A DNA stretch of 64,000 nucleotides from a candidate division WOR-3 bacterium. GTDB lineage: Bacteria > Hydrothermota > Tepidihabitantia > B3-TA06. The first letter of the stretch is position 1, and the number at the start of each line of letters is the position of its first letter. Made by a program: the position numbers and the translations under genes. The notes under the pieces were generated by a model that had not been told where the DNA came from, did no database searches, and was given only the letters and a program-made list of their open reading frames with translations. The DNA lies in NCBI GenBank assembly GCA_023128825.1, contig JAGMDF010000082.1, positions 8,626 through 72,625 of the forward strand, given 5' to 3'. Below, piece by piece: positions 2,694 through 21,720 of this stretch.

Positions 2694-4544
2694 ATGAAGA
2701 AAGCCCTTCTCGTTTTCTTGCTTGTGGCAGTAGCGGCGCCTGCTCAGTTCAGCGACGCCGTAGGAACTACTGCACACCCCCTTTTGAAGATAGGATTCGG
2801 GCCGCGTGCGGCGGCGATGGGTAACGCCTATGTAGGACTTGCACCGGACATCACCGCCCTCTGGTGGAATCCCGCAGGTCTCAACCAGCTCAACACCTAC
2901 GAAGCCCTGATCTCGCATCACGAATGGCTGCGGGGCATAAGAGACGAGTTTGCGGCCCTCATATGGCCGCAATCGGCCAACAACACCTTCGGTTTCGCCA
3001 TGAACTTTACAAGTGCTTCAGGCATCGAACGCTGGGATGCAGATAACAATCCGGGAACCGGGGCAGATTCCCTGGTCATGGCCTACGAGGCTATGCTTGT
3101 GGGCTCATACACTCGTCTCTTGGGTGAAAGATTCGGCGTAGGGGCGAGCTTTAAGGGTCTTTATGAGAATCTCGCCGGTCCTGCAGGCTACGGCGGAGCG
3201 GTTGATCTCTCGCTCCACTGGAAGGCTTCCCCGGTCTTCGCTCTGGGCCTTGCCCTGCAGAATCTTGGTCCCGGGATGTTCTATACAGGCGGCATGTATC
3301 TGTTTCCAATGCAGGCTCAGTTAGGTGCGGCACTTACGTTCGAGAATGTCCTCTACGGGTTGAACTTGTTAACCGACGTCCGGGTGCCCTTTGACAACAA
3401 TGTGAGCGTGCATGCCGGTGCCGAGGTTTGGCCGCTTGAGATCCTGGCCGCGCGCGTAGGGTTCCAGTCAGGTCCTCAGACATTGGGAGAGCTCAACTTC
3501 CTTGCCGGTCTGACCGGAGGCGTAGGACTTGTGTTGAACAACTATCGTGTTGATTACGCGATTGCCCCCTACGCCCACCTTGGATTGACTCATCGACTGG
3601 CTCTTATCGCGGCCTTCGGCGAGAGGCCGCGTTACGGCGGCGTCATAGTTCGCGTGATCGATGCGGAGACGAAGAAATCCCTTGCGGCCCATCTTAAGGT
3701 CGAGGGGGTTACCAGGGCAGAGAATGATCTGGTCGAGAATGAAACCTGGGAGCGCAAAGGACTCGCTCCAGGAAGGGTCTCTGCAACCGCCAGCAAGGAA
3801 GACTACTACCCATCCTCCGGTCAGGCCCAGATCAAAGCCGGCCAGACAGCCCAACTCGTCATCGCCCTCTCAAAGATCCCGCCTGGAGGAATAACAGGTC
3901 GTGTCTTCGACGTGAAGACTAACGATCCCCTTGTGGCCACGATTACCTACGAAGGACCCGAAGGGATCAAGGGCGAGGTCAAAACCGACGAAGAGGGCAA
4001 CTACACCATACCTGGACTCTACAGAGGCGACTATGCACTGTTTGCCGAGCCACAGCATCCCAAGTACTTCCCACAGGATGCCGAGGTTAAGGTAGAGGCG
4101 GCAAAAGGCGCCAGGAAGGACTTTGCGCTGCTGCGTGAGAAAGAGCTAATCGTCTTCTACAACGTGAACTTCGAGACCGGCGAGGCCAGGGTCCTTCCCG
4201 ATTTCTACGACGTGCTAGATGAGATCGGCCAGATATTTGCGGATAACCCCACGATCGTGGTGGAGCTGGGTGGACACACCGATTCACGTCCCATAAAGAC
4301 CCCGGAGTTCGCAGACAACGTGGAGCTCTCCCAGGCGCGTGTAGAAGCGGTCCGTGAGTATCTCATAGACAAGTTCCAAATCGATGAAGAACGACTCTCA
4401 GCCAAAGGATACGGCGACACACAACCTATTGCCTCCAATGAGACCGAAGAAGGTATGGCGAAGAACCGCCGCGTGGAGTTCAAGGTACTAACCGGTATTG
4501 AATACTTCCACGAGATCCGCAACATCAGACCAGAGGAAGACTAG
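2694..4544 (+). CDS. outer-membrane protein: N-terminal PorV/FadL-like beta-barrel fused to two carboxypeptidase-regulatory-like domains and a C-terminal OmpA peptidoglycan-binding domain
   Basis: Signal peptide; N-terminal 'RAAAMGNAYVGLAPDITALWWNPAGL' motif shared with ORF 52574..53656; 'GGVIVRVIDAETKK' / 'GITGRVFDVKTNDPLV...EGNYTIPGLYRGDY' CarboxypepD_reg-like; 'ELGGHTDSRP...NRRVEFKV' OmpA_C. Confidence 0.6.
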   Translation: MKKALLVFLLVAVAAPAQFSDAVGTTAHPLLKIGFGPRAAAMGNAYVGLAPDITALWWNPAGLNQLNTYEALISHHEWLRGIRDEFAALIWPQSANNTFGFAMNFTSASGIERWDADNNPGTGADSLVMAYEAMLVGSYTRLLGERFGVGASFKGLYENLAGPAGYGGAVDLSLHWKASPVFALGLALQNLGPGMFYTGGMYLFPMQAQLGAALTFENVLYGLNLLTDVRVPFDNNVSVHAGAEVWPLEILAARVGFQSGPQTLGELNFLAGLTGGVGLVLNNYRVDYAIAPYAHLGLTHRLALIAAFGERPRYGGVIVRVIDAETKKSLAAHLKVEGVTRAENDLVENETWERKGLAPGRVSATASKEDYYPSSGQAQIKAGQTAQLVIALSKIPPGGITGRVFDVKTNDPLVATITYEGPEGIKGEVKTDEEGNYTIPGLYRGDYALFAEPQHPKYFPQDAEVKVEAAKGARKDFALLREKELIVFYNVNFETGEARVLPDFYDVLDEIGQIFADNPTIVVELGGHTDSRPIKTPEFADNVELSQARVEAVREYLIDKFQIDEERLSAKGYGDTQPIASNETEEGMAKNRRVEFKVLTGIEYFHEIRNIRPEED

Positions 4545-4576
4545 AAGAAACCCTATAAGCAACACAGAACTTTCGA

Positions 4577-4610
4577 CCCCCGTGAGGAGAACCTCACGGG
4601 GGTTGTTATT
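4577..4610 (+). terminator. rho-independent terminator (11-bp stem CCCCCGTGAGG/CCTCACGGGGG, then TTGTTATT)
   Basis: Perfect hairpin plus T-run directly after the 2694..4544 stop; a second hairpin (AAGCCCC/GGGGCTT at about 4630-4650) serves the convergent minus-strand gene. Confidence 0.7.
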
Positions 4611-4678
4611 AGACCCCCCAAGCATCAAAAGCAAGCCCCGGTTAGGGGGCTTTGGCTTTTAAACGATGGATCTTTCAG

Positions 4679-4918
4679 TTAATCAGCGCCCAGATAATCG
4701 TCAATATCGTCAACATGTGCCCATATCTCATAATCAACGTCTGGGATAACGCAGCCGCATAACTGCTCAAGGACAGAGATAAGTGCGGGGGCATCCTCGG
4801 GCCAAGACTTGCCTCCCAACCCGTTAAGGGGCGTTTGTGCACTCACCTGATCTATCCCTACACCTGCCCATGCAGCCACCGCCTGATGAACCTGTTCTTT
4901 AGAACAAGAGCTACGCAT
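4679..4918 (-). CDS. small acidic hypothetical protein (79 aa) co-directional with the upstream TPR gene
   Basis: ATG preceded by AAGGAG SD (rc of 4919-4935); no recognisable family. Confidence 0.35.
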   Translation of the reverse strand: MRSSCSKEQVHQAVAAWAGVGIDQVSAQTPLNGLGGKSWPEDAPALISVLEQLCGCVIPDVDYEIWAHVDDIDDYLGAD

Positions 4919-4947
4919 AATTTGCTCCTTAACTATATGTTTTTATC

Positions 4948-6114
4948 CTACTCAACATCTGAGCTGGGCACTTGCTTAAGCCACTCGTCCAGCTTGACGA
5001 GCTCATTCTTCAACCCCACAGAGTGATACCCCCGACGAGCTTGCTTAAGAAGCTGCTCCAAACCAGTGACCTTAAACCCTAGTTCCTTCACCATTTCACC
5101 AAGCCTTCCGTGAAGCGACAGAAATCGCTCCACATCATCCGCTTTCTCAGCATAGGACAAAGCCTCGGTAAAGTAACGTATCGCCCTATCCACGGCCCCC
5201 TCGTAGACGGCCATCTCACCACGAACCATCTGAATATTACTCATCAGCGAAGCCGAGTCAACCCCTTTTGCCAGTCCTATAGCCTCCCTCAGGAAAGGAC
5301 CAACCTTATCGAGTTGCTCCAACCCTATGTGAACACGGGCAAGATTGCACAAAATAATGGCCAGGTTCTTGCGATCCCCTAACCCCTTAAAAAGTCCATA
5401 TGCCCCTTTCAGAGGTTCCAACGCCTCGGTAAACTCGTCTTGCTTAAGGTGCAGGGCACCACGCCGGAAGTGGGTGATTGCATCGAGTCTCTTATCGTCA
5501 AGTTGTCGAGCGAGTTCCTCAAGTTTCTCGAAACTCTGTATGGCGAGCTTCGGTTCATCCTTTTCCATATAGGAGGAAGCGATGCAGCCATAGCACCCGG
5601 CAAGCCCGCGCAGATCGCCAACATTCTCCAATCGCTTCTTCGCGTCTTCAAGAATCACAATGGCTTGACCGTGATCCCCGTAACGTTGACTGAGGACTGC
5701 CCTGTTTACGAGGATACGTCCCTGAAGACGCACATCCCCGGTGATGTTTGCAAGTGTCAAAGCCTCGCTCCACGCCTTATCAGCCAGGGCGTATCGGTTC
5801 ATGCGCGCGTACACATTCCCTAAGGCCAAAATACTCTTGCAGAGGACCTCAGAATCGCCACAGGTAAGGGCATACCTGCGTGCAATTGTAACGTAATCGA
5901 AGGCCTCGTTCAGTTGACCACGGTTAAGAAGCGCCTCTCCGGCTATCCGATTCAACTCTGCGCTCTCTACAGCCGTAGGGGTATGTTTAAGCCCCTGGAC
6001 AGCACAACGCAATGCATCCTCCGATTTGTCCTTCTTGATACACTCACGAGCCTCGGCAAGGAGCTTCGCGCTTTTACTCCTTCCCTCAGCTAATTCACTT
6101 GTGTTGTTGTTCAA
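4948..6114 (-). CDS. tetratricopeptide-repeat (TPR) protein
   Basis: 388 aa of repeated 34-residue TPR-like helices (for example 'ALGNVYARMNRYALADKAWSEAL'). Confidence 0.6.
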   Translation of the reverse strand: MNNNTSELAEGRSKSAKLLAEARECIKKDKSEDALRCAVQGLKHTPTAVESAELNRIAGEALLNRGQLNEAFDYVTIARRYALTCGDSEVLCKSILALGNVYARMNRYALADKAWSEALTLANITGDVRLQGRILVNRAVLSQRYGDHGQAIVILEDAKKRLENVGDLRGLAGCYGCIASSYMEKDEPKLAIQSFEKLEELARQLDDKRLDAITHFRRGALHLKQDEFTEALEPLKGAYGLFKGLGDRKNLAIILCNLARVHIGLEQLDKVGPFLREAIGLAKGVDSASLMSNIQMVRGEMAVYEGAVDRAIRYFTEALSYAEKADDVERFLSLHGRLGEMVKELGFKVTGLEQLLKQARRGYHSVGLKNELVKLDEWLKQVPSSDVE

Positions 6115-8671: not shown

Positions 8672-8702
8672 ATATTAGATTAAAGGCAACTGGAGGAGTG
8701 TG

Positions 8703-10280
8703 ATGTTTGTCTGGCTTCTACTTTTCAGTGCCCCGCTTGACTGCGGAGCTTTTGATGTAATGGCGTTTCGTTCCATAGAAGAGCGTCACGAGTACATAGA
8801 CTCCCTTGCCGGGGAGGATCTTTATGGGACGATAAGTCTGTTGAGTGAAGTCTTGAACTGCCCCTCGGAGCAGACGCGTATGTTTGCTGCCGAAGCTCTT
8901 GGGTATCTGAGTGACCCTGGAGCCACACCTGCCCTTAGTGCTGCGCTAAAGTCGCCCTCTACCGGGGTTCGCTACGAGGCCGCATGGTCATTGGGATTGT
9001 TGGGTGATACCTCAGCGGTGACGTCTTTGATTGAGGCGCTTTCTGATCGTGCGGCACCGGTGCGAACCAACGCCGCCTGGGCGCTGGGGGAGATCGCAGA
9101 CGCGCGGGCGATCGGCGCGTTACTGAAGGCCCTTGACGATACCGACCATCGCGTCCGCAAGAACGCAACCGAGGCCTTGGGTAAGCTCGAATCCAAGGAG
9201 GCGGTTCCTATTTTCCTTGAGCGCCTTTCTTCCCTTTCAGGTCCAGAACGCAACAGTACACTCGCCGCACTGACGAAGATCGCCGACCCCCGAGCCACCG
9301 AGGTTCTCGCCCAAGCCGCCACTAACCCCTCCGTTCCTGACCGCCACCTCATAGCACAGGCACTCGGTCGAATGGGCGACACCACCGCTGTAGAGACCTT
9401 GATAAAGCTCTTGGATGATCCCCGGTGGGCCGTTCGTGCGAAGGCGGCGTGGTCGTTGGGAATGCTTAAAGATAAACGCGCGGTAAAACCACTCCAGACA
9501 AAAGCTACAGACAAGAAATCCGAGGTAAGACAGGCGGTGTTCGAGGCGCTCGGACGCTTAGGCGAGATCTCGGCTGAGGACGTCCTGATCGAAGGTCTTG
9601 CGGATGAGAGCGACCTTTGCGTGATGGCCTCAGCACACGCCCTCGGGCTTCTGGGAAGCAGGAAGGCGCTAGAGCCTCTGATCGAGTTAATGTCCAACCC
9701 GGAACCACCGGTGAGGGAGCAGGTGGCCTTTGCCCTGGGCGCGATTGGAGATCCAGCCGCGGCTGCCTCACTGCGCGCGCGACTCAACGACGCCTCATGG
9801 GAGGTCCAACAGGCCTCCGTGACCGCTATCGGAAGGCTCAAGGACGCATCATCCCTCGAATCGCTGCGTCCGGTTTTGTTCCACAAGTTCTGGAGCATTC
9901 GCCTTGCAGGGGTACAGGCTCTGGGCGCAATCGGTGCTTCGGAAGGACTGCCCCTGCTCCAACAGCGCTTCAAGGACGAGCACCCGGACGTGCGGCGCTG
10001 GTCACATCTGGTGGCCTTGAAGCTGGGAGCCGATCCGGGGAAAGCCCTTACCGGTCTCAAAGAAGAAAACCCTTCCTCTGAGATGCTGGAGGCCGCAACC
10101 TACATGGCAGGAGAGGAGGAGTCGTTAGGACCATGGCAAGGAGAGCTGACAGAGGAACGCTTAAAGCTTCTTGAACTGGTTCATACCGATGAAGCCCGAG
10201 CATTACTTGAGTCGCTCTCCATCCCAGCGGACAACCCGGAGCTCGGCGAGCTGCGCTTGATTATCCTAAGGAGCTGGTAG
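8703..10280 (+). CDS. HEAT-repeat (PBS-lyase-type) protein
   Basis: Many tandem repeats of the type 'VRxxAAWALGxIGDxRAIxxLxxAL'; GTG at 8700 or ATG at 8703. Confidence 0.75.
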   Translation: MFVWLLLFSAPLDCGAFDVMAFRSIEERHEYIDSLAGEDLYGTISLLSEVLNCPSEQTRMFAAEALGYLSDPGATPALSAALKSPSTGVRYEAAWSLGLLGDTSAVTSLIEALSDRAAPVRTNAAWALGEIADARAIGALLKALDDTDHRVRKNATEALGKLESKEAVPIFLERLSSLSGPERNSTLAALTKIADPRATEVLAQAATNPSVPDRHLIAQALGRMGDTTAVETLIKLLDDPRWAVRAKAAWSLGMLKDKRAVKPLQTKATDKKSEVRQAVFEALGRLGEISAEDVLIEGLADESDLCVMASAHALGLLGSRKALEPLIELMSNPEPPVREQVAFALGAIGDPAAAASLRARLNDASWEVQQASVTAIGRLKDASSLESLRPVLFHKFWSIRLAGVQALGAIGASEGLPLLQQRFKDEHPDVRRWSHLVALKLGADPGKALTGLKEENPSSEMLEAATYMAGEEESLGPWQGELTEERLKLLELVHTDEARALLESLSIPADNPELGELRLIILRSW

Positions 10281-10684: not shown

Positions 10685-11956
10685 GTGGCTTTTCTTGATC
10701 TATACAATTCCCAGCGGTTGACTTCCGATCATCACACGATAGAATTCCGTGTGAAGCAAGGTCTAAGGCTTGGAATCTATCTTCATGATCGCTACCGCGG
10801 CGGCGGAAACTTTACTGTTTCCAACTCCGAATCGTTGAACTTCATCAAAAGGTTAAAACTCGCCGAGCAAATCTCCTTGGCCGTCTCGGTCACCCCCATT
10901 CAAGATATAGATCGTGGCAACTATCGAGTCGTTGCAGAAGAACTCGGTATAAACCTGCTGCCTTTGCCTGGCTGGCGTAGCCTTGCAGAGAGCTTAACTT
11001 CAATACCCTTTTCCTTGAGTCGAATTCTGAAGACTGCCCGTAACCTGCTGGCAAAAAGCGACATCCTTTGGTTACGTCTGCCTTCCGGGGTTGCTTTTTT
11101 CTTCTGGTGGCTTGCCAAAAAGCAAAACAAGCCGGTAATCATGCACGTATCGGGCAACGTATTAATCGTAGCCCGGTCACAGAAGTATAAAGGCCTGCGT
11201 CGTCTCACGGCTCGATTGGCTTCCTTTACGCTACACCTGTTGACTCGGTGGATGAGTCGTTATGGAATAACTTTGGTAAGCGGAGGAGAGCTGGAGAAGC
11301 TTTTCTCGACCCCATTACACCCTGTATACCAGCTTGACGATATATTACTTTCTGAAAAGAAGCTACTACCCCCCAAGAGAACCAAGGGAGAGGCAAAGGA
11401 TCTACTCTTCGTCGGGCGATTTGACCACGGCAAGGGCATAGAATTGCTGATTCAAGCTATCGAGGATTTGCGAGTTGATTTCCCAGGGATCAGGTTAAGG
11501 ATGGCGGGTGACGGTCCGCTACTTGAGCCTATGCAAAGATTCGTTGCGGAGCGCAACCTTGAAAAGAACGTAAGGATTCTAGGGTTCGTCCCCGCAACCG
11601 GGCCGCTCGAGCGGCTTTACAAGGAGGCGGATATATTTGTATTACCCTCCGACAAAGGTGAGGGTTTCCCAAGGGTTATTCTTGAGGCATGGGGGTCAGG
11701 ATTGCCTGTTCTGGCAACTCGCTTGGGCGGAATCCCTTACAAGATACACCACGACAAAAACGGCCTGCTTGTCACACCGGGCTCCCGCAAGGAATTATTC
11801 AACGCCCTGCACAGGCTTATTCAGGACGGCAACCTGCGCTATCGTTTGGCTAAAGGTGGATACGAGACGATACGTTCCTTGACCTTTGAACATCAGGCTC
11901 GGCGCATCAGAGAGCTGTTGCATCGGTATTACCCCCACCTTGGGGTCCATCCCTGA
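10685..11956 (+). CDS. glycosyltransferase family 4 (GT-B, group 1)
   Basis: 'EGFPRVILEAWGSGLPVLATRLGGIPYKIHHDKNGLLV' is the GT1/GT4 EX7E-type motif; GTG start, true start uncertain. Confidence 0.7.
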   Translation: MAFLDLYNSQRLTSDHHTIEFRVKQGLRLGIYLHDRYRGGGNFTVSNSESLNFIKRLKLAEQISLAVSVTPIQDIDRGNYRVVAEELGINLLPLPGWRSLAESLTSIPFSLSRILKTARNLLAKSDILWLRLPSGVAFFFWWLAKKQNKPVIMHVSGNVLIVARSQKYKGLRRLTARLASFTLHLLTRWMSRYGITLVSGGELEKLFSTPLHPVYQLDDILLSEKKLLPPKRTKGEAKDLLFVGRFDHGKGIELLIQAIEDLRVDFPGIRLRMAGDGPLLEPMQRFVAERNLEKNVRILGFVPATGPLERLYKEADIFVLPSDKGEGFPRVILEAWGSGLPVLATRLGGIPYKIHHDKNGLLVTPGSRKELFNALHRLIQDGNLRYRLAKGGYETIRSLTFEHQARRIRELLHRYYPHLGVHP

Positions 11957-12014
11957 TCTGAACCTTGTGATTGCTGTCCCATTGATGAGGGGAATCGCAG
12001 CAGGCCCTCATGTA

Positions 12015-12042
12015 TTGACAGTTGCACGGCAATCAATAGACT
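12015..12042 (+). promoter_or_regulatory. promoter TTGACA-16-TAGACT, putting the TSS at about the ATG of the 12048 gene (leaderless)
   Basis: -35 at 12015-12020, -10 at 12037-12042, ATG at 12048. Confidence 0.5.
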
Positions 12043-12047
12043 AGCGG

Positions 12048-12722
12048 ATGAGGAAAATCCCGTCATATCTTAAAGAAACCGACGCCTGGAGCACGGTTCT
12101 CTTTGCCGATCCCCTGGGCATCCCTCTGGCAAGGCTGCTTTCGCATACATCCATCCATCCCAATGTGGTCACGATAGCAAGCCTGGTGCCTGCCTTGGCT
12201 TGTACCTATTTCTTCTGGCGCGGCGATTCCCTCTCGCTTCTATGGGGAGCACTTTTGTTCCAGCTCGCGTGGATTCTCGATTGTACCGACGGCAAGCTTG
12301 CCAAGATGACGGGCAAACAGACGGAGTTTGGAACAAAGCTTGATCCTAAAGTCGACTTCGTGCGCAAACTTCTTACACTGGCAGCCCTGACGTGGGGTAT
12401 ATACCGTCAATTCGGAATCATATGGCTTTTTGTCACCCTGGGTGGCGTTATGTTCCACTACGGTATCCACTTTGTTATTCATCACACTCCGCCACGCATC
12501 AGACAGAAGGAGATACCTCAGGCTCCGGCTGAGGTGAGACTGATCCGCCGGGTAGGACAGCTCTACACAGCCTACGACGAGCAGTTCTTTATCCTTTTCC
12601 TGGGTCCGGCATTGGCCTGGCTTACGCCCCATCTGCCCACCTACGTGATATGGGGTGCAAGCCTCCTTTATGCAATAACCATCCTGATTATCAAGATTCA
12701 GATGAAGCAGAGGGGAAGATGA
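12048..12722 (+). CDS. CDP-alcohol phosphatidyltransferase family membrane protein
   Basis: 'DCTDGKLAKMTGKQTEFGTKLDPKVD' fits D(x)2DG(x)2A[RK](x)8G(x)3D(x)3D; multiple TM helices; 224 aa (the size of DIPPS-like enzymes). Confidence 0.75.
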   Translation: MRKIPSYLKETDAWSTVLFADPLGIPLARLLSHTSIHPNVVTIASLVPALACTYFFWRGDSLSLLWGALLFQLAWILDCTDGKLAKMTGKQTEFGTKLDPKVDFVRKLLTLAALTWGIYRQFGIIWLFVTLGGVMFHYGIHFVIHHTPPRIRQKEIPQAPAEVRLIRRVGQLYTAYDEQFFILFLGPALAWLTPHLPTYVIWGASLLYAITILIIKIQMKQRGR

Positions 12723-13444
12723 AGGCCATCATCCTGGCCGCAGGCGAAGGTCGCAGGCTTCATCCCCTTACCATCGACCGTCCCAAGGCAATACTCGAGG
12801 TTGGTGGAAGGATGTTGATCGAAAGAGCGCTGTCTGCATTGCGGGGCGCGGGGATTGAAAGATCAGAGGTGATCATCCTGTCCGGACACAAGGTCGAGAA
12901 GTTGAAAGAGGCAGCGCCGGATTGCCGGTTCATTCACAACGAAATCTATGATACAACCAACAACATCTACTCCCTGTGGCTGGCCAGGGGTGAGCTTGTC
13001 GGTCAAGAGTTTTTCCTGCTCAACAGCGACGTCCTTTTTGCTTCGCAGATGGTCAAGGACATACTCCAGGATGCCAGAAGTAGCCTGATGATGGTGGATG
13101 ACGTAAATCCTCTGGTTAAGGAAGAGATGAGGGTGATGGTGAACGGGGAGCAAAGAATCACCGCTATCGCTAAGATCCTTGATCGGGAGCAAAGCGCGGG
13201 CGAATACATCGGACTTGCAAGATTCGGAAAAGACTTCTCTAAAGCGTTCTTTGATAAGATGGACGAGATGATTAAAGCAGGTGAAACCGGTGTGTGGTAC
13301 GAGAACGCCATCGCCGAGATCCTTGGTGAATACCCGATTTATTCCCTCAGTACACGGGGACTGCCCTGGATAGAGGTAGACACCCACGAGGATCTGGCAA
13401 AGGCTCAGGTTATTGCAAAAAAAATTGACAACCTGGAGGCCTAG
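12719..13444 (+). CDS. sugar/alcohol-phosphate nucleotidyltransferase (LicC / IPCT-like cytidylyltransferase)
   Basis: 'MKAIILAAGEGRRLHPLTIDRPKAILEVGG' NTP_transferase N-terminus; ATG 12719 overlaps the upstream stop (ATGA). Confidence 0.7.
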   Translation: MKAIILAAGEGRRLHPLTIDRPKAILEVGGRMLIERALSALRGAGIERSEVIILSGHKVEKLKEAAPDCRFIHNEIYDTTNNIYSLWLARGELVGQEFFLLNSDVLFASQMVKDILQDARSSLMMVDDVNPLVKEEMRVMVNGEQRITAIAKILDREQSAGEYIGLARFGKDFSKAFFDKMDEMIKAGETGVWYENAIAEILGEYPIYSLSTRGLPWIEVDTHEDLAKAQVIAKKIDNLEA

Positions 13445-14482
13445 ATGCCCATATTCGGAAGCAGCGTATCACTGCCCATACTGGTGAGGATCGAGGGTAA
13501 CCTGCTGGATAGGGTGAACGAACTCCTTCGCGAGTCCAACCTGCTCTTCACCAAGCCTTTGATAGTTACCATGAAAGAAATTCGATCTATGGCGGATGAG
13601 GTGTCGGCTGGATTCAAAGAACCGCACATCCACGAGATCACCGACAACTCCTACCCTCAGGTGGAGGAGATAGAGGAGGTCATTGATGAGGTCAGACCTG
13701 ACGTGCTCTTAGGTGTAGGAGGCGGCCGGGTGATAGACGTAGCCAAGTTCGCCGGCTCGCGGCGGATTCTTCCTGTGGTCAGCATCCCTACCTCGCTCTC
13801 CAACGATGGCATCTCATCGCCGGTAGCGGTGATTCGTTTCCGCAAAGGCACCCGCAGCGTGGGGGTAAACATGCCTACCGCGGTGCTCGTGGACCTGGGG
13901 GCGATTACCTCCGCGCCCCTCAAAAATCTCAAGGCAGGGGTGGGGGATCTTGTGTCCAACATCTCCGCAACCAACGACTGGCTGATCGCTTATCGCAAGA
14001 CCCACGAACACTACGATACGGTGGCCGCGCTCCTGGCTCGCAAATCAGCGTTCGAGATGCTTGATGCCAGGCGGATCAATCTTACAGACACCTCGTTTTT
14101 AAAGATCCTGGCCGAGGGGCTTATGCTCTCCGGCATCGCCATGGGTATTGCTGGAACCAGCAGGCCCTGCAGTGGTTCGGAGCATCTTTTGAGCCATGCC
14201 TATGACGAGCTTTATCCGGATAAAGTAACGTTGCACGGCGAGCAGGTGGCGATGTTTGCGGTATTTACATCCTATCTTCAGGACGAGCCCTCCGCCTCGG
14301 CCCAAGCCGAGTTCCTTAAGCGAAACGAGTTGATTGCCACCCCCAAGGATATCGGATTAGGGTTCGAGGATTTCAAGAGGATTGTCAAACACGCCCCTTC
14401 CACCCGCCCAGGACGCTACACTATCCTGGAAGAGGTTGACGAGGTGGATAGCGAGAAGGCCTTTCGCAAGGCTTACGGATAA
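13445..14482 (+). CDS. Fe-ADH/DHQS-superfamily dehydrogenase, best match sn-glycerol-1-phosphate dehydrogenase (EgsA/AraM-like)
   Basis: 'LLGVGGGRVIDVAKFAG' glycine-rich NAD(P) loop and 'CSGSEHLLSHA' metal-binding His motif; 345 aa; start abuts the upstream stop. Confidence 0.5.
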   Translation: MPIFGSSVSLPILVRIEGNLLDRVNELLRESNLLFTKPLIVTMKEIRSMADEVSAGFKEPHIHEITDNSYPQVEEIEEVIDEVRPDVLLGVGGGRVIDVAKFAGSRRILPVVSIPTSLSNDGISSPVAVIRFRKGTRSVGVNMPTAVLVDLGAITSAPLKNLKAGVGDLVSNISATNDWLIAYRKTHEHYDTVAALLARKSAFEMLDARRINLTDTSFLKILAEGLMLSGIAMGIAGTSRPCSGSEHLLSHAYDELYPDKVTLHGEQVAMFAVFTSYLQDEPSASAQAEFLKRNELIATPKDIGLGFEDFKRIVKHAPSTRPGRYTILEEVDEVDSEKAFRKAYG

Positions 14483-14725: not shown

Positions 14726-15814
14726 ATGAGTAAGATAACGCTTTCCGTCATCAAGGCCGACGTCGGCGGTTACGTGGGACACTCGGCCTCGCATCCTGAG
14801 GTGATGGCCAAGGCAGAGGTGATGCTTGACGCAGCCAAGAGGGAGGGAAAGCTCATAGACTTCGAGGTCCTCGCCTGCGGTGACGATCTTGAATTGATCA
14901 TGACCCACACCCACGGCACCGACGCCGAGGTTATTCACAAGCTGGCCTGGGATACCTTTGTTGAAGGCACAGAGGTTGCCAAGAAATTAAAGCTGTACGG
15001 AGCCGGTCAGGATCTTTTAGCCGATGCCTTCTCGGGCAACGTGAAGGGCATGGGTCCGGGTTGTGCGGAGATGGAGTTCGAAGAGCGCAAGAGCGAACCG
15101 GTAATAATCTTCATGGCCGACAAGACCTCGCCCGGCGCGTGGAACTACCCGCTGTACAAGATATTCGCCGATCCGTTCAACACCGCCGGCCTGGTTATCG
15201 ATTCTTCAATGCATGAGGGCTTCACCTTCTTGATCAACGACCCGATGAAGAACAAACGGGTCAAGCTCAATACACCTGAAGAGATGTATGATCTGCTGGC
15301 GCTGATCGGCAGCCACGAGCAGTACGTGGTGGATACGGTGTACCGCAAGGACGGCCTCGTCGCGGCCAAGGCGTCCACACAGAAGCTGGCGCTGATTGCG
15401 GGCAAGTACGTGGGCAAGGACGACCCGGTGATGATCGTTCGCGCCCAGGCGGGCCTGCCAGCTGTGGGCGAGGTGCTGGAGCCGTTCAGCTTCCCCCACG
15501 TGGTCTCAGGCTGGATGCGCGGCTCTCACAACGGGCCCCTGATGCCGGTAAGCTTCAAACAGGCCACTCCGACCCGGTTTGACGGCCCTCCGCGCGTAAT
15601 CGCTGCCGGATTCCAGCTGGCAGACGGAAAACTGATCGGTCCGAGGGACATGTTCGACGATCCGTCGTATGACAGATCGCGAGCCATAGCTAATGAGGTA
15701 GCCGACTACCTGCGCCGCCACGGACCGTTCGAGCCGGGCAGGCTGCCCCACGGTGATATGGAGTACACCACCCTCCCGCAGGTGCTTGAGAAACTTGAAG
15801 ACAGGTTCTCCTAG
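14726..15814 (+). CDS. fbp: bifunctional fructose-1,6-bisphosphate aldolase/phosphatase (archaeal-type class V FBPase)
   Basis: Near-collinear conservation with characterised FBPA/P: 'SVIKADVGG...HS', 'GDDLELIMTHTHG', 'AGQDLLADAFSGNVKGMGPGCAEMEFEER', 'IFMADKTSPGAWNYPLYKIFADPFNTAGLVID', 'LIAGKYVGKDDPVMIVR', 'GWMRGSHNGPLMPVS', 'TRFDGPPR', 'MEYTTLPQVLEKLEDRF'. Confidence 0.9.
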   Translation: MSKITLSVIKADVGGYVGHSASHPEVMAKAEVMLDAAKREGKLIDFEVLACGDDLELIMTHTHGTDAEVIHKLAWDTFVEGTEVAKKLKLYGAGQDLLADAFSGNVKGMGPGCAEMEFEERKSEPVIIFMADKTSPGAWNYPLYKIFADPFNTAGLVIDSSMHEGFTFLINDPMKNKRVKLNTPEEMYDLLALIGSHEQYVVDTVYRKDGLVAAKASTQKLALIAGKYVGKDDPVMIVRAQAGLPAVGEVLEPFSFPHVVSGWMRGSHNGPLMPVSFKQATPTRFDGPPRVIAAGFQLADGKLIGPRDMFDDPSYDRSRAIANEVADYLRRHGPFEPGRLPHGDMEYTTLPQVLEKLEDRFS

Positions 15815-16758: not shown

Positions 16759-17400
16759 ATGAAGAGCAAAGCTTTGATTGCGACCCTTTTGGCGGGACTC
16801 ATTATTGCGTCCCCCCTTTTCGGTCTTTCACTCAAGTTCGCCCCGGGCTGGGGTGCAGTATGGGCAATCGGTGATGAGATCGAGGAATCGGACATCGGAT
16901 ACAACTTCTCCGGTGCCGTCGAGATCGAGGTCTGGAAAGGATTCGACTACGGCTTTAAATACTACTACTCGGATGTCTCCGCCACGGTTCCCAACACCTT
17001 CAATACCGACACCACCATCACCTCCTATGACGCGGAGTTCGTCCATCACGCGTTTGCGCTCACCAACACCTGGTCTCCAGGCTGGAAATGGGTTGACCCT
17101 TACGTGCGCGGCGCGGTAGGACTATACTCATGGCAGCAGTTGGACGAGGACGGTAATATCTTTGAGGTTATAAATCCTCAGGACACTGCTAAGACAGTAG
17201 AGCTCGCGGCCACCTCTTTCGGAATAAGCGTTGGCGGCGGTATCAAGATATGGCCCATCAAGTACGTGGGGTTCCGGCTCGGAGCAGATTACGACTTTAT
17301 ATTCTCCGAGAACCGGGAACGCTTCGGCTCACAGGACGCAAATGAGAATCTGTTACGGATTGGCGTAGAGGCGATTTTCCGATTGCCAATAAAGGAGTAA
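16759..17400 (+). CDS. outer-membrane beta-barrel protein (OmpW/Omp-beta-barrel-like)
   Basis: Signal peptide, alternating amphipathic strands, C-terminal aromatic-rich end. Confidence 0.5.
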   Translation: MKSKALIATLLAGLIIASPLFGLSLKFAPGWGAVWAIGDEIEESDIGYNFSGAVEIEVWKGFDYGFKYYYSDVSATVPNTFNTDTTITSYDAEFVHHAFALTNTWSPGWKWVDPYVRGAVGLYSWQQLDEDGNIFEVINPQDTAKTVELAATSFGISVGGGIKIWPIKYVGFRLGADYDFIFSENRERFGSQDANENLLRIGVEAIFRLPIKE

Positions 17401-17458: not shown

Positions 17459-17493
17459 TGTAGGGGTACGGCATGCCGTGCCCCTAGATTTTT
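17459..17493 (+). terminator. palindromic terminator element, copy 1 (TGTAGGGGTACGGCATGCCGTGCCCCTA then GATTTTTAT)
   Basis: 26-nt near-perfect palindrome (one G.U) followed by a T-run; identical 28-mer recurs at 19967..19994. Confidence 0.7.
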
Positions 17494-17672
17494 ATGCGGC
17501 TTTACCGGGAAGGAATCGTGTCTTGTCCAATTTGTGGGCGACCGAGTCGGTGTTCATAAAGAGCGCCGCTTATCACTCACTATGACTACGATGGTGGAAA
17601 CCACCTTGCTCGCCATGAGTCAGGGCATCGAGTATGGGTAATCGAAAGGCCGTCTGTTTTTATTAACTCATC

Positions 17673-17735
17673 TTGACATCACACATTTTTCTCCTATAAT
17701 TGAGTTATGTAATTAACTGACTAGTCAGTTAATTA
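17673..17735 (+). promoter_or_regulatory. consensus promoter (TTGACA-16-TATAAT) of the radical-SAM gene with a downstream perfect 26-bp palindromic operator TAATTAACTGACTAGTCAGTTAATTA
   Basis: -35 at 17673-17678, -10 at 17695-17700, palindrome at 17710-17735 covers the predicted TSS; TetR gene lies downstream. Confidence 0.65.
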
Positions 17736-17789
17736 TCGAAAAACGTTGCGGAGCTTTTATCTAAAGGAACTAAGGAAAGGAGACAAAAG

Positions 17790-19235
17790 ATGAATCCTCT
17801 TCAAAAAAGGTTGACCGCTCAAGCAATCAAGGCGGCAGTAAAAAACCCCGGCCTCGCCAGTACACTTCTAAAACCACTCAGGGCAAGAATCAAAAAGGGA
17901 ATTATGGATGCCCAACCCACGAACATACCCTACCTCACTGAAATAAAAACACAGTTTCTTGTGAATCTACTTGAGCAGTCTTTCAAAAACATCCAAAAGG
18001 GGTACTTTTCCACTGAGTATGCTGAAAGGGTACGCGAGACCTTTGTAATGAATGGGTTCCTCGACGAAAGGCGACCCAAAGTCCAGAAAAAGTACAAGGA
18101 TAAGTACGGAATAGAACCCCCCAGCTTCTGTTTGATCTCTCCCACCAAGCACTGCAACCTTAGATGCATAGGATGTTACGCGGCCTCGGAAGCAACTAGC
18201 GCAGCCACACTGGACTATGAGGTGTTCACCAAGCTGCTCCATGAGATGCGCGATCTGATCGGGTCGAACTTCATCGTGATCTCCGGCGGCGAGCCCTTTA
18301 TGTACAACTCCCAGGGCAAGACCCTGCTTGACGCCGTGGAAGAATTCTCCGACATGGTTTTCCTTGTTTACACCAACGGGACACTACTCACCGACGAAAC
18401 GGTGGAAAGGATGGCCGGACTGGGAAACATAACCCCGGCGATATCCGTTGAAGGCTACGAGAAAGAAACCGACGCAAGACGGGGAAAAGGCGTCTATGCG
18501 AAGATTATGGATTCAATGGAGAGGCTTAGACACCGCGGGGTTCCCTTCGGGACATCCGTTACCGCAACCAAGAACAACGTTGAAATCCTGCTGACCGACG
18601 AATTCTACGAGCACTACTTCGAGGAGCTGGGTGCGGTGTATATGTGGATGTTCCACCTGATGCCTATCGGAAGGGCCAGGGACACCATGGATCTGATGAT
18701 TTCTCCTGAGCAGCGCGTTGCGCTTTACAACCAGTGGGAAAGGATGCTCTTCGATAAGAAATACTTTGTCGGAGACTTCTGGAATAGTGGTGCGGCATCG
18801 GATGGCTGCATTGCCTATGGCAGAGAGAGGGGATACTTCTACGTCGACTGGAACGGGAACATCATGCCTTGCGGGTTCGTGCCATACTACAAAGACAATC
18901 TCTACGATCTTTACAGGGATGGTAAGTCAATCGCAGACGGGCTGATGTCGGATCTGTTTGTAAAGGGAAGGAACTGGCAGCACGAATACGGATACGGTCA
19001 ACTGAAGTTCTGTAATAATATACTTACCCCTTGCTCTATCCGCGACCACCACAAATACTTCAGGGAGAATATCCTGGACAACAGCGCGAAGCCTGAGGAT
19101 GAAAATGCAAAGGCAGCGCTCGAAGATCCTGAGTACTACGAGAGACTGGTGGAGTTCGATGAAGAACTTGAGAAGCTCACCCAACCCATCTGGCAGGAGC
19201 GCTACCTTAAAGACCTGAAACGAACCTCACGATGA
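17790..19235 (+). CDS. radical SAM / SPASM-domain protein with about 120-aa N-terminal extension
   Basis: 'CNLRCIGCYA' CxxxCxxC at residues about 122-129; C-terminal Cys-rich 'GCIAYG...NIMPCGFVP...KFCNNILTPCSIRD' SPASM-like auxiliary cluster region; AAGGAG SD. Confidence 0.8.
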   Translation: MNPLQKRLTAQAIKAAVKNPGLASTLLKPLRARIKKGIMDAQPTNIPYLTEIKTQFLVNLLEQSFKNIQKGYFSTEYAERVRETFVMNGFLDERRPKVQKKYKDKYGIEPPSFCLISPTKHCNLRCIGCYAASEATSAATLDYEVFTKLLHEMRDLIGSNFIVISGGEPFMYNSQGKTLLDAVEEFSDMVFLVYTNGTLLTDETVERMAGLGNITPAISVEGYEKETDARRGKGVYAKIMDSMERLRHRGVPFGTSVTATKNNVEILLTDEFYEHYFEELGAVYMWMFHLMPIGRARDTMDLMISPEQRVALYNQWERMLFDKKYFVGDFWNSGAASDGCIAYGRERGYFYVDWNGNIMPCGFVPYYKDNLYDLYRDGKSIADGLMSDLFVKGRNWQHEYGYGQLKFCNNILTPCSIRDHHKYFRENILDNSAKPEDENAKAALEDPEYYERLVEFDEELEKLTQPIWQERYLKDLKRTSR

Positions 19236-19271
19236 TGCCGCACCTCTATACAGTACAACCCGGGGGGCAGC

Positions 19272-19299
19272 TTGACAGAACTGCCTTTTCTACTATAAT
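19272..19299 (+). promoter_or_regulatory. consensus promoter (TTGACA-16-TATAAT) of the TetR gene, -35 flanked by inverted repeat GGCAG...CTGCC
   Basis: -35 at 19272-19277, -10 at 19294-19299, ATG at 19311. Confidence 0.6.
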
Positions 19300-19310
19300 G
19301 GCAGGTTATT

Positions 19311-19913
19311 ATGTCTGAACGTTCGCCAAGAAAACCAGGAGAGATGCGCCGCCGTGAGATCCTTTCCGCGGCAAGAGAACTCTTTTGCGAATACGGCTTC
19401 GATCAAGTCGGTATGGAGGATGTGGCGAAGAAGGTAGGAATCTCAAAAGCGGCAATCTACTTCTACTACAAGAGTAAGCTTGAGCTTTTCATAGCGATGA
19501 TTAAATCATCACTTGACCAACTAGTGTCGGATCTCAAGGCTGACCTTAAGGATGAATCGAAAAAAGGCATTAAAAACCGCCTTGATGCGGTACTCCACTC
19601 GCTCAGCCGGTATGTCCCTCTGATTTCAAGCATGCGCAGGCTTTTCGAAACCGGAGGAATTCCAGTCGTTCCTGCACGCCACATGACGCTCTTTACGAAA
19701 CGCATCACTCCCAGCATCGAGGAGGTAAAAGAGGTGCTGGCATCTGTTTTCTTCAGTGCACAGAAGACAGGTGAGGTAAGAAAAAATCTAACTCCCCAAA
19801 CGCTGGCAAATGTTTTTCTGGGGCTTGCGTCTTCGCTGGCTGGAATCGAGACGGGCTTCGCGACAGTGAGAGAGATTTTCCTTAAAGGAATCCTCGTAGA
19901 GGAGGCAGGGTAA
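19311..19913 (+). CDS. TetR/AcrR-family transcriptional regulator
   Basis: 'ILSAARELFCEYGFDQVGMEDVAKKVGISKAAIYFYYKSKLELF' TetR HTH. Confidence 0.85.
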   Translation: MSERSPRKPGEMRRREILSAARELFCEYGFDQVGMEDVAKKVGISKAAIYFYYKSKLELFIAMIKSSLDQLVSDLKADLKDESKKGIKNRLDAVLHSLSRYVPLISSMRRLFETGGIPVVPARHMTLFTKRITPSIEEVKEVLASVFFSAQKTGEVRKNLTPQTLANVFLGLASSLAGIETGFATVREIFLKGILVEEAG

Positions 19914-19966
19914 GAAAAAACCCAGGTGGGCGTTGCCGTCGTGAGCTTTGCGAAACCTTAAGATAT

Positions 19967-20000
19967 TGTAGGGGTACGGCATGCCGTGCCCCTACTTTTA
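19967..20000 (+). terminator. palindromic terminator element, copy 2 (identical 28-mer TGTAGGGGTACGGCATGCCGTGCCCCTA then CTTTTA)
   Basis: Identical to 17459..17486. Confidence 0.7.
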
Positions 20001-20088: not shown

Positions 20089-21720
20089 ATGGTCAAGATC
20101 AAGCTGGGACGAAGTGCGGTGCGTGAAGTAAAAGAAGGCACCCCTATATCGAAGCTGATCCCTGCGGGTCAGCCCATCATCGCGGCCAAGCTGGAGGGTG
20201 AGCTGGTCGGACTCAACACCTCGCTTACCAAGGACGCGAAGATCGAGTTCGTTCTCGCCACCGATCCCGAAGGCCTGAAGATTCATCAGGAGAGTCTTAT
20301 CTTTGTCCTCACCATGGCCGCCAAACGCGCCTTTCCCGAAGCGAGGCTGGTGGTTGAACATTCAACCTCTAAGGGCTTCTACTGCACCCTAAGAATGGAG
20401 CGTATCATGGAGAAGCGCGACGTTGAGCTTCTTGAGGCTGAGATGCTCGGGCTTCTGGCCGACGATCTGCCCGTCACCATGCGGGAGGTGGATCGGAAGG
20501 AGGCAACCGCCATCTGTAAACGCAACAACAACACCTCAAAGCTGGCGTTATTGGAGTACGCGGATAAGGACGAGTACATTATCCACCGGTGCGGCGATTT
20601 CGCCGACTGGGCAAGAGGGCCGTTGGTTCCTTCAACCGGCTCCTTGTGCGCGTTTGAGCTTCTGCACTATCCACCCGGCTTTATTCTGCGCTACCCCACA
20701 CCTGAATCGTTCCCTGAGCTTCCCACCTTCGTGGAGCAGCCAAAACTCTTCCTTATCTTCCATCACTACGAGCGGTGGAGTGAAGCCTTGGGTATCTCCG
20801 ATATCGGCCACCTCAACCGTCTCATAAGGGAAGATAAAGGCCTTGAATTGGTCAACGTTGCCGAGGCTTTGCACGAGAAGGCCATCGCCCGAATTGCAGA
20901 CCGCATCGCCGCCACCACCATACTCCCCCGCATCGTGCTCATCGCCGGCCCCTCATCTGCCGGGAAAACAACCTTTTCCAAACGACTGGCGGTGCATCTG
21001 CGGGTTAACGGTCTGCGACCCCTGCCGTTGTCGGTGGACGACTACTTCTTCGACCGCTCCAGTACCCCGCTTGACGAGGAGGAAAAGCCCGATTTCGAGG
21101 GAATCGACGCCATTGATTTGGAGTTCTTCAACCAGCAGTTGGTGCTCCTTCTGGAAGGCAAAAGGGTGGATAGACCCCGCTTCGATTTCGAGAGAGGCAG
21201 GCGCTGTTTCGACGGCACCACCATGATCCTGAAGCCAAACGAGATACTTATCGTGGAGGGAATCCACGCGCTCAACCCGCGCCTGACTTCTGCCGTACCC
21301 AAACATCTCAAGTTCAAGATATACGTATCCGCGCTGACCCAGCTCAACTACCACGACCAGCGCATCGTTTCCACCTCTGACACCAGGATGCTGAGACGAA
21401 TGCTGCGCGACTACTCCTACCGCGCTCATACACCCACCAGAACCATGAAGCGGTGGGCTAAGGTGCGCAGGGGCGAGGAGCGCAACGTCTTCCCTTACCA
21501 GGAGTCGGCGGATGAGATGTTTAACTCGGCTCTTATCTATGAACTTGCAGTGATGCGCAACAGGGCAATGAAACTTCTGCGCACTGTCCGAAGCAAGGGC
21601 CTGCGCTCGGAGGCCGAACGCATGATCTCCCTCTTGGAACTGGTCACCCCTATGGACGACGGCGCGGTACCACCTGCATCCATCCTCCGCGAGTTCATCG
21701 GAGGAAGCGTCTTCCGGTAG
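20089..21720 (+). CDS. uridine kinase / phosphoribulokinase-family P-loop kinase with N-terminal TGS domain
   Basis: N-terminal 'MVKIKLGRSAVREVKEGTPISKL' TGS-like; 'LIAGPSSAGKTTFSKRLAVHL' Walker A with PRK/UDK-type downstream motifs. Confidence 0.6.
   Translation: MVKIKLGRSAVREVKEGTPISKLIPAGQPIIAAKLEGELVGLNTSLTKDAKIEFVLATDPEGLKIHQESLIFVLTMAAKRAFPEARLVVEHSTSKGFYCTLRMERIMEKRDVELLEAEMLGLLADDLPVTMREVDRKEATAICKRNNNTSKLALLEYADKDEYIIHRCGDFADWARGPLVPSTGSLCAFELLHYPPGFILRYPTPESFPELPTFVEQPKLFLIFHHYERWSEALGISDIGHLNRLIREDKGLELVNVAEALHEKAIARIADRIAATTILPRIVLIAGPSSAGKTTFSKRLAVHLRVNGLRPLPLSVDDYFFDRSSTPLDEEEKPDFEGIDAIDLEFFNQQLVLLLEGKRVDRPRFDFERGRRCFDGTTMILKPNEILIVEGIHALNPRLTSAVPKHLKFKIYVSALTQLNYHDQRIVSTSDTRMLRRMLRDYSYRAHTPTRTMKRWAKVRRGEERNVFPYQESADEMFNSALIYELAVMRNRAMKLLRTVRSKGLRSEAERMISLLELVTPMDDGAVPPASILREFIGGSVFR

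Follow-up and report, generated by a model that had tools for sequence, protein, structure and literature searches.

The stretch of DNA analysed here (the window, 64 kb of a candidate division WOR-3 genome of the TA06 group) carries on its + strand a gene for a radical S-adenosylmethionine (rSAM) enzyme of 481 aa (17790..19235) and a gene for a TetR-family regulator of 200 aa (19311..19913), and this pair is bracketed by two identical 28-nt palindromes. The order of the features is accD, an outer-membrane protein (OMP) beta-barrel gene, the first palindrome, 159 bp, rSAM, TetR, a relic of the accD tail, the second palindrome and a PRK-like gene, and the same order is found in the related contig L212. 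A first-pass annotation, made from the letters alone, had read the palindromes either as a recently duplicated cassette boundary or as members of a family of repetitive extragenic palindrome (REP)-like elements. Our analysis points to two loosely connected layers, REP hairpins and a repressor-controlled rSAM unit, and we regard this as the probable explanation of the locus as a whole.

The paired palindromes and the GTAG class of REP elements

The 28-mer (TGTAGGGGTACGGCATGCCGTGCCCCTA) is present at 17459-17486 (copy 1) and at 19967-19994 (copy 2) with 0 mismatches, and no third copy with up to 3 mismatches was found in the window, where shuffled sequences are expected to give 0. Both copies are extragenic and palindromic with one T/G position, and on the + strand a T-run comes after each of them (GATTTTTAT for copy 1, TTTTATT for copy 2), as first described. 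They also bracket the rSAM gene, its promoter and operator and the TetR gene; the interval holds 159 bp of non-coding DNA and a second promoter as well. The palindrome of copy 2 runs to a full 28 nt from GTAG to CTAC at 19968-19995 (GTAGGGGTACGGCATGCCGTGCCCCTAC); copy 1, the hairpin of which covers 17461-17486, has the GTAG foot at the 5' end and CTAG at the 3' end. In the + strand RNA, copies 1 and 2 fold with -23.8 and -26.5 kcal/mol (z -3.1 and -5.2), respectively, and folding is weaker for both on the - strand, where the T becomes an A-C mismatch. The two 28-mers are the top two terminator-like sites of the + strand between 14 and 24 kb, and both consist of a GC-rich hairpin and a U-run, which is the anatomy of an intrinsic terminator. 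Copy 1 is the probable terminator of the OMP gene (213 aa, 16759..17400, + strand, with a Pfam OMP_b-brl match just under the cutoff) and copy 2 that of the rSAM-TetR unit. An Rfam scan of 16.6-20.2 kb gave chance-level matches only, so that neither the hairpins nor the leader fall within a known RNA family, and a full-text search for the palindrome or its peptide translations found no paper. The origin of copy 1 as a segmental duplication of the downstream region was rejected, as the identity ends at the 28-mer.

The 28-mer of the window is a one-base variant of GTAGGGGCACGGCATGCCGTGCCCCTAC. A scan with the 22-nt core GGGGYRCGGCATGCCGYRCCCC alone, with one genome per GTDB species, matched at least 120 stretches of GTDB genomes, which belong to Acidobacteriota, Chloroflexota, Planctomycetota, Omnitrophota, Cyanobacteria, Gemmatimonadota, Desulfobacterota, Nitrospirota, Chlorobiaceae and others. 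Among the matches listed, the perfect GTAGGGGCACGGCATGCCGTGCCCCTAC palindrome was completed by flanks outside the searched core at 60 of about 126 sites, and GTAGGGGCACGGCATGCCGTGCCCCTAC is letter-identical in at least 60 sampled loci of many phyla (loci within L004-L123). Sister palindromes have the frame GTAGGGGC...GCCCCTAC in common. By a crude gene call, about 69% of the core sites lie outside called open reading frames (ORFs) or only at their ends, as compared to 12% of random positions; among the matches listed, 30 sites fall in tandem gaps, 24 in convergent and 5 in divergent ones. Viral contigs gave just 3 palindrome matches, so the element is not a phage-borne one. In six loci (L057, L014, L029, L050, L072 and L102) the palindrome is found in frame within a Y1-transposase gene, directly after the HUH motif, and is translated as RGTACRAPT or VGARHAVPL. 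The transposase gene of L057 has flanking palindromes at 4402 and 5064 and an internal one at 4708 (element 4402-5091), and a further example of the in-gene palindrome lies at 1895-2590 of L014. Pfam Y1_Tnp matches the proteins of L057, L014 and L072 and not that of L050, and the top NCBIfam model for L014, L057 and L050 is 'REP-associated tyrosine transposase', with 58-61 bits. Homologues of the L014 protein, many of which contain the same loop peptide, are named 'REP element-mobilizing transposase RayT' by JGI.

The GTAG-tagged class of REPs was defined by Di Nocera et al. 2013 (PMC3733652), with members in more than 80 species from 8 phyla. For TnpA_REP subclass 2.4 (RAYT group 4), Quentin et al. 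2018 (PMC6006769) described REPs of a 'double-foot' type, which have GT[AG]G at the 5' end and C[TC]AC at the 3' end, and reported that REPs of this subclass lie in frame within the transposase gene, between the HUH and Tyr motifs. Copy 2 carries both feet of this definition and copy 1 the 5' foot only, and in other genomes the same sequence flanks or sits inside a RayT gene. On the basis of these sequence matches, the 28-mers can be assigned to REP elements of the GTAG double-foot type of RayT/TnpA_REP subclass 2.4, which bears out the REP-like alternative of the first-pass annotation. Several observations weigh against this assignment or against reading the elements as terminators in general. 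No RayT gene was found in the 64-kb window and the REP copies there number only 2, so their status as REPs rests on sequence identity with REPs elsewhere and not on copy number; the 58-61 bits of the RayT candidates are below the curated NCBIfam cutoff of 80; and most of the cross-phylum copies have no T-run after them, so termination would be a local use of the element. The hairpin and T-run anatomy at gene 3' ends on the coding strand, together with the two copies in 64 kb and the lack of a RayT gene in the window, would also fit plain intrinsic terminators that had arisen or been duplicated locally and were unrelated to REP or RayT. Such terminators, however, would hardly have a 28-nt palindrome, GTA/TAC feet included, that is letter-identical in dozens of unrelated genomes, mostly without a T-run, and that flanks and lies inside RayT genes, nor would other GTAGGGGC...GCCCCTAC variants be expected at the same site in relatives, and we consider this explanation quite improbable. 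As REP elements, the hairpins of this TA06-group genome most likely act as intrinsic terminators or 3'-end stabilisers of the OMP gene and the rSAM-TetR unit.

The radical-SAM enzyme and its TetR regulator

The rSAM gene has a Shine-Dalgarno sequence AGGAG at 17778-17782, and its product is composed of a helical N-domain (residues 1-106), the rSAM core, a twitch-like region and a helical tail. Pfam matches are limited to Radical_SAM (PF04055, 2e-20) and Fer4_12, with no SPASM (PF13186) and no PqqD match in the protein. The core shows the CX3CX2C motif and a (beta/alpha)6 fold that matches rSAM structures, and the cysteines C122, C126 and C129 are invariant in an alignment of 36 members; as the motif starts at C122, the extension of about 120 aa noticed at first is real. 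In the AlphaFold2 model (mean pLDDT 91), residues 1-106 form five helices without a strand (pLDDT about 80-95), and an all-helical extension of this kind would not be a RiPP recognition element (RRE; RiPP, ribosomally synthesized and post-translationally modified peptide). The auxiliary cysteines that are invariant in the same alignment are C340, C361 and C415 only, and C408 is specific to the window protein. The seven-Cys motif and two auxiliary [4Fe-4S] clusters that define a SPASM domain are thus not found; three invariant auxiliary cysteines allow at most one cluster, possibly with an open site, and the protein fits a twitch-like enzyme with a putative single auxiliary site of three protein ligands. 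The SPASM-like Cys cluster of the first-pass annotation therefore holds for C340, C361 and C415 but not for C408 and not for a Pfam SPASM domain, and its extra tail of about 100 aa is reduced to a helical tail of about 65 aa past the last conserved Cys. The C-terminus is charged, not hydrophobic.

Classification with profile models brought no named family near its cutoff: NCBIfam gave 65 weak matches, the best with 80 bits as compared to a cutoff of 500. Full-length orthologues with 50-67% identity are found in TA06, Dependentiae, Aminicenantes/Acidobacteriota, Goldbacteria and Bacteroidota, and an exhaustive search (E <= 1e-30) gave 351 clusters at 50% identity. Metagenomes of low-oxygen settings, sediment and groundwater among them, are the main source of the sampled homologues. 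The enzyme is placed in the SPASM/twitch branch and in no named family. Tandem paralogues of the family occur in some genomes (L216 7001-10105; L173, L184 and L169).

The enzyme had first been likened to RRE-containing, sactisynthase-like RiPP maturases. Its closest solved structures are indeed SuiB, SkfB, ChlB, TigE and the sactisynthase chains 5why and 5wgg, and weak NCBIfam matches to peptide maturases exist, so that the protein could be pictured as a RiPP maturase with a precursor encoded elsewhere and with the N-terminal extension as a divergent peptide-recognition domain. But those matches are far under the family cutoffs and cover the generic core only, the five helices of the N-domain lack the beta-sheet of an RRE, Pfam matches to PqqD or SPASM are missing, and only three auxiliary cysteines are invariant. 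A PqqD-like RRE with an adjacent precursor gene, by which RRE-dependent maturases are recognised, was not found, and no conserved small ORF lies beside the rSAM gene at the loci examined. Identity of 50-67% across phyla is unusual for RiPP enzymes. The 19-aa ORF upstream of the rSAM gene was rejected as a precursor: it lies in a lineage-specific 159-bp segment without homologue that is absent from the relatives L001 and L211, in agreement with the earlier remark that no convincing precursor ORF is adjacent. A RiPP maturase is in our view very unlikely, and the rSAM is a conserved single-function enzyme.

Upstream of the rSAM gene, a promoter of the sigma-70 type (17673..17700, + strand) consists of TTGACA, 16 nt and TATAAT, with 12/12 matches to the consensus, and is conserved in L001. 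The predicted TetR operator (17710..17735) starts 10 nt past the -10 hexamer and is a perfect 26-nt palindrome, TAATTAACTGAC TA GTCAGTTAATTA, which is unique in the window, with no second operator site found there. Its arms are conserved in relatives and the central dinucleotide varies (CG in L001, CA in L131), which is the pattern expected of an operator bound by a dimer. Palindromes of the form AACTTACCG-NN-CGGTAAGTT, the half-site of which resembles AACTGAC here, also lie upstream of the TetR or rSAM gene, before the first gene, at several loci of other phyla. A second consensus promoter (19272..19299, + strand; TTGACA, 16 nt, TATAAT), likewise conserved in L001, precedes the TetR gene, the product of which matches Pfam TetR_N (PF00440) with 3e-17. 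The helix-turn-helix of TetR_N and the palindrome at the promoter would identify it as a TetR-family repressor. A TetR of the same subfamily lies less than 1 kb from the rSAM gene in 16 of 85 related loci of metagenomes and genomes (18 with two calls that overlap the rSAM gene), always on the strand of the rSAM gene and usually upstream, and the TetR is predicted to be the cognate partner of the rSAM. Taken together, promoter, operator, rSAM, promoter, TetR and REP terminator make up what appears to be a self-contained, ordinary repressor-controlled unit. Across 4.3 kb, four promoters (17673, 19272, 20052 and 21930) have 11-12 of 12 matches to the sigma-70 consensus with spacers of 16-17 nt, and such clean sigma-70 promoters are unusual for a candidate-phylum genome.

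As to the substrate, the genes that recur beside the rSAM across lineages are the cognate TetR, sterol-sensing-domain MMPL transporters, patatin-like phospholipases, ABC1/UbiB kinases and B12-binding rSAM enzymes. In one case an ABC1/UbiB gene begins at the rSAM stop codon, and one lineage has a block of pgpA/bacA, rSAM, two unknown genes, purA, uppS and cdsA. The accD gene that adjoins the locus in the window and the nearest solved TetR structures, which include FasR and FadR/YsiA, were counted toward a lipid as well. A membrane lipid, a polyprenyl compound or some other hydrophobic metabolite is the most likely substrate, which agrees with the part of the first-pass suggestion that named a lipid or small molecule. 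This is the weakest step of the argument, and a number of points speak against it: the lipid evidence is circumstantial, the neighbours differ between lineages and at many loci none of them is informative, the pgpA-uppS-cdsA block was seen in a single lineage, and the TetR resembles FasR and FadR mostly in the DNA-binding domain.

A more specific proposal would make the rSAM an Mss-type membrane-spanning-lipid synthase, or another enzyme that couples C-C bonds in or modifies lipid tails, induced through a TetR that senses acyl chains. Homologues of Mss have been reported to occur widely in the FCB superphylum and in candidate phyla and to be remote relatives of Tes. Mss is described as sharing the architecture of Tes, which for its part is described as an enzyme with a SPASM domain, a domain that binds two auxiliary clusters. 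The homology screen of the Mss authors required E <= 1e-50 and at least 30% identity to Tmari_0825 and WP_129545148.1, which are confirmed Mss proteins. This distribution of Mss homologues, the lipid-related neighbours and the largely low-oxygen metagenomes from which the homologues of the window enzyme come are all in keeping with the proposal. The window enzyme has only three extra cysteines, however, as compared to the Tes-like SPASM architecture of Mss (a comparison by description only), Tes ranks below generic SPASM enzymes among its structure matches, its C-terminus is charged and not hydrophobic, and the full-length homology and three-cluster architecture that mark Tes and GDGT-MAS are not found. 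We judge an Mss-type enzyme unlikely. The broader reading, in which the rSAM and TetR represent an uncharacterised family that spans phyla (about 350 clusters at 50% identity, the members of which have a helical N-domain and a three-Cys twitch site) and carries out a new radical modification of lipids or polyprenyl compounds in largely low-oxygen bacteria, with a lipid-sensing repressor as the switch, is a tentative one, doubtful as it stands.

Gene order in related genomes

The history of the two REP copies was followed by block-by-block comparison with five related contigs (L001, L131, L211, L212 and L213). The window rSAM is 88% identical to the B3_TA06 rSAM, and in every examined TA06-type relative that carries the rSAM-TetR pair the pair adjoins accD. 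The contig L001 (86% nucleotide identity) has the order accD, intact terminator, rSAM, TetR, relic, REP and PRK, without the OMP gene or the upstream REP. In L211 (94% nucleotide identity) the order is accD, intact terminator, rSAM, TetR, a 105-bp relic of the accD tail that leads into the OMP gene, two REPs that differ in type and PRK. L213 lacks the rSAM gene and has an RND pump, OMP, a REP of another variant and PRK, and L131 (95% nucleotide identity) has a third REP variant at the TetR-PRK junction. The contig start of L131 (position 1, which is window 17517) lies about 30 bp past the position of REP copy 1, which would fit a break of the assembly at a repeated element.

On the left side, the OMP block ends in REP copy 1, the left flank of which, AAGGTGAGAAACACAATACGC, is also found beside this type of REP in L211 and L212. 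Homologues of the OMP gene are confined to metagenome bins of the TA06/WOR-3 type, and in the relatives the gene is found before the rSAM, after the TetR, elsewhere or not at all. Behind REP copy 1 lies the 159-bp non-coding spacer (17487..17645) that holds the 19-aa ORF; this spacer is restricted to the window lineage (L212, L131), shows no coding signal and is unmatched in L001, L211 and all other loci. At 17646..17665 (+ strand) the window is again homologous to L001 and L211, and here the 3' half and T-run of the ancestral accD terminator survive as a relic; the complete hairpin of this terminator, AACAGGCGGCCACAAGACCGCCTGTTTTT, is found in L001 and L211. This is the left breakpoint of the rSAM-TetR block. 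It falls within the old terminator of accD, at a distance of 160 bp from the REP, and the REP pair does not delimit a transposable cassette. On the right side, a relic of the accD 3' end (19926..19966, + strand) lies behind the TetR gene as a pseudo-tail and is truncated by REP copy 2. The counterpart in L211 is about 105 bp long (3335-3420 in L211), matches the accD tail of the window near-perfectly and is followed by the OMP gene. The pseudo-tail behind the TetR gene indicates that the rSAM-TetR pair came in next to accD, by an event in the 3' end of that gene in which its tail was duplicated. Further on in L211, at 4135-4300, two tandem REPs that differ in type follow the OMP gene, one of them with a 35-bp loop insertion, and between the two is a second copy of part of the PRK upstream region; this is a local REP insertion hot spot.

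From these comparisons, the OMP block and the rSAM-TetR block have swapped order in recent history, and REP variants have been replaced at fixed junctions. The breakpoints of the rearrangements lie at REPs or within about 160 bp of them. In L001 the site orthologous to copy 2 carries GTAGAGGCACGGCATGCCGTGCCCCTAC; in L212 it has a T-variant and in L131 another REP variant. In L212 the upstream REP is degenerate and has C (GTAGGGGCACGGCATGTCGTGCCACTAG), and the downstream REP has T. The copies are thus identical only in this lineage and differ in L212, which argues for recent homogenisation and not for a duplicated cassette end; the identity, including a shared derived C-to-T change, could be due to gene conversion or re-copying. 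The shared change keeps the pairing, as G-U, only in the + strand RNA. For the order of the rearrangement events, one junction, that between the accD relic and the REP, is common to the window and L001 and conflicts with the simplest tree. The cassette boundary proposed at first therefore stands in so far as gene order differs in relatives and the breakpoints lie near REPs, but the duplication of such a boundary does not, because L001 and L211 have no upstream REP and the two copies of L212 differ.

The segment could also be read as a mobile cassette that was moved by recombination or RayT action at the flanking REPs, with the identical ends as its footprint. As compared to L213 (OMP-REP-PRK), the window does look as if spacer, rSAM, TetR and REP had been inserted beside a REP, and where the OMP block and the rSAM-TetR block have traded places in L211 relative to the window, REPs lie at or near the junctions. 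Yet the left bound in L001 and L211 is the intact accD terminator without a REP, the left breakpoint of the window is at 17646 within that terminator and 160 bp from the REP, the accD-tail relic behind the TetR gene indicates entry via recombination in accD, the REPs of L212 are not identical, and the rSAM-TetR pair is found in many unrelated contexts across phyla (where REPs were not looked for). A REP-borne cassette seems unlikely to us, and recent homogenisation of ordinary REPs is preferred.

Other genes of the window were noted in passing. A 526-aa HEAT-repeat protein (8700-10280) resembles NblB/CpcE-type lyases well under the cutoffs, in a lineage that is non-photosynthetic. It is followed by a four-gene run (10685-14482) that encodes a GT4 glycosyltransferase, a CDP-alcohol phosphatidyltransferase (like archaetidyl- or phosphatidyl-inositol-phosphate synthases), a nucleotidyltransferase and a glycerol-1-phosphate dehydrogenase-like protein (250 bits, cutoff 413), and this run may be a glycerol-1-phosphate-based pathway for a polar lipid or a solute in a TA06-group bacterium. 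A bifunctional fructose-1,6-bisphosphate aldolase/phosphatase (14726-15814; 594 bits, above the cutoff) lies directly upstream of accD. The PRK-like gene (20089-21720) encodes a 543-aa fusion of a region like the threonyl-tRNA-synthetase N-terminus (residues 72-192) with a uridine-kinase/PRK domain, and every relative examined has it conserved on the downstream side of the locus.

A proposed two-layer explanation and its relation to known systems

In the first layer of the proposed explanation, the REPs would end two units of the + strand, the OMP gene and rSAM-TetR, by hairpins with T-runs. Copying or gene conversion between the two sites would have made the REPs identical, and REPs in this neighbourhood would turn over; the breakpoints of small rearrangements in gene order coincide with them or lie no more than about 160 bp away. 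In the second layer, anatomy and general knowledge of the TetR family suggest that a TetR dimer binds the 26-bp operator and blocks transcription of rSAM, and that a small hydrophobic ligand may release the repressor and so derepress the gene. The product, a twitch-type rSAM with one three-Cys auxiliary Fe-S site, would then modify a lipid, polyprenyl compound or other hydrophobic metabolite, as its neighbours suggest.

The hairpins require no new concept. They extend a published REP class to the TA06 group, where its members would be reused as terminators and lie at or near the breakpoints of small rearrangements, and they are a caution for annotators that identical 'cassette ends' may be ordinary REPs that were recently homogenised. 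The rSAM family is a more useful lead than the palindromes, being highly conserved and without an assigned function, and the defined repressor and operator give a clean genetic handle on it. If the lipid reading is true, the enzyme could be a missing step in the biosynthesis of bacterial branched or membrane-spanning lipids. The bacteria in which it occurs are candidate sources of sedimentary lipid biomarkers, several biosynthetic steps of which are still missing.

As compared to the SPASM/twitch enzymes SkfB, SuiB, anSME, BtrN and MoaA, the rSAM shares the CX3CX2C core and a C-terminal beta-hairpin region with Cys...GX4C (C340...G356-x4-C361) and a further Cys. It is unlike them in its three invariant auxiliary cysteines, in the family-specific helical N-domain of 106 aa and helical tail of 65 aa, in reaching no named-family model and in having no peptide partner at the examined loci. 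The likeness to Tes and GDGT-MAS is limited to the core, with Foldseek TM-scores to 7tol and 7tom of 0.35-0.38 and a lower Cys content in the window enzyme, and Tes ranks under the generic SPASM enzymes. The TetR resembles the units of FadR/YsiA, FasR and AcrR in its N-terminal helix-turn-helix (PF00440), its size of about 200 aa, its adjacent target gene and its palindromic operator, which overlaps the transcript start; it differs in gene order, as here the rSAM precedes a TetR with its own promoter, whereas the TetR comes first in other phyla.

The 28-mers are similar to intrinsic terminators in their GC-rich stem of 11-12 bp, loop of 4 nt, 3' T-run on the coding strand and position just past the stop-codon region, but the stem is a shared mobile-repeat sequence and not an idiosyncratic one. 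With the REPs of subclass 2.4 they share the 28-nt GC-rich palindrome with 5' GTAG and 3' CTAC and the extragenic position at gene 3' ends, and copies of this sequence in other genomes flank RayT genes and also lie in frame inside them, in the HUH-Tyr interval. Unlike those REPs, the window has 2 copies in 64 kb with no RayT found, both copies have the C-to-T change, copy 1 lacks the 3' CTAC foot, and each copy precedes a T-run, which gives it the anatomy of a terminator. The letter identity across phyla also exceeds the mostly taxon-confined distribution of TnpA_REP genes given by Quentin et al. 2018 (PMC6006769) for classes other than 2.1 and, to a lesser extent, 2.4, and for GTAGGGGCACGGCATGCCGTGCCCCTAC it seems to go beyond the descriptions in the REP papers considered here.

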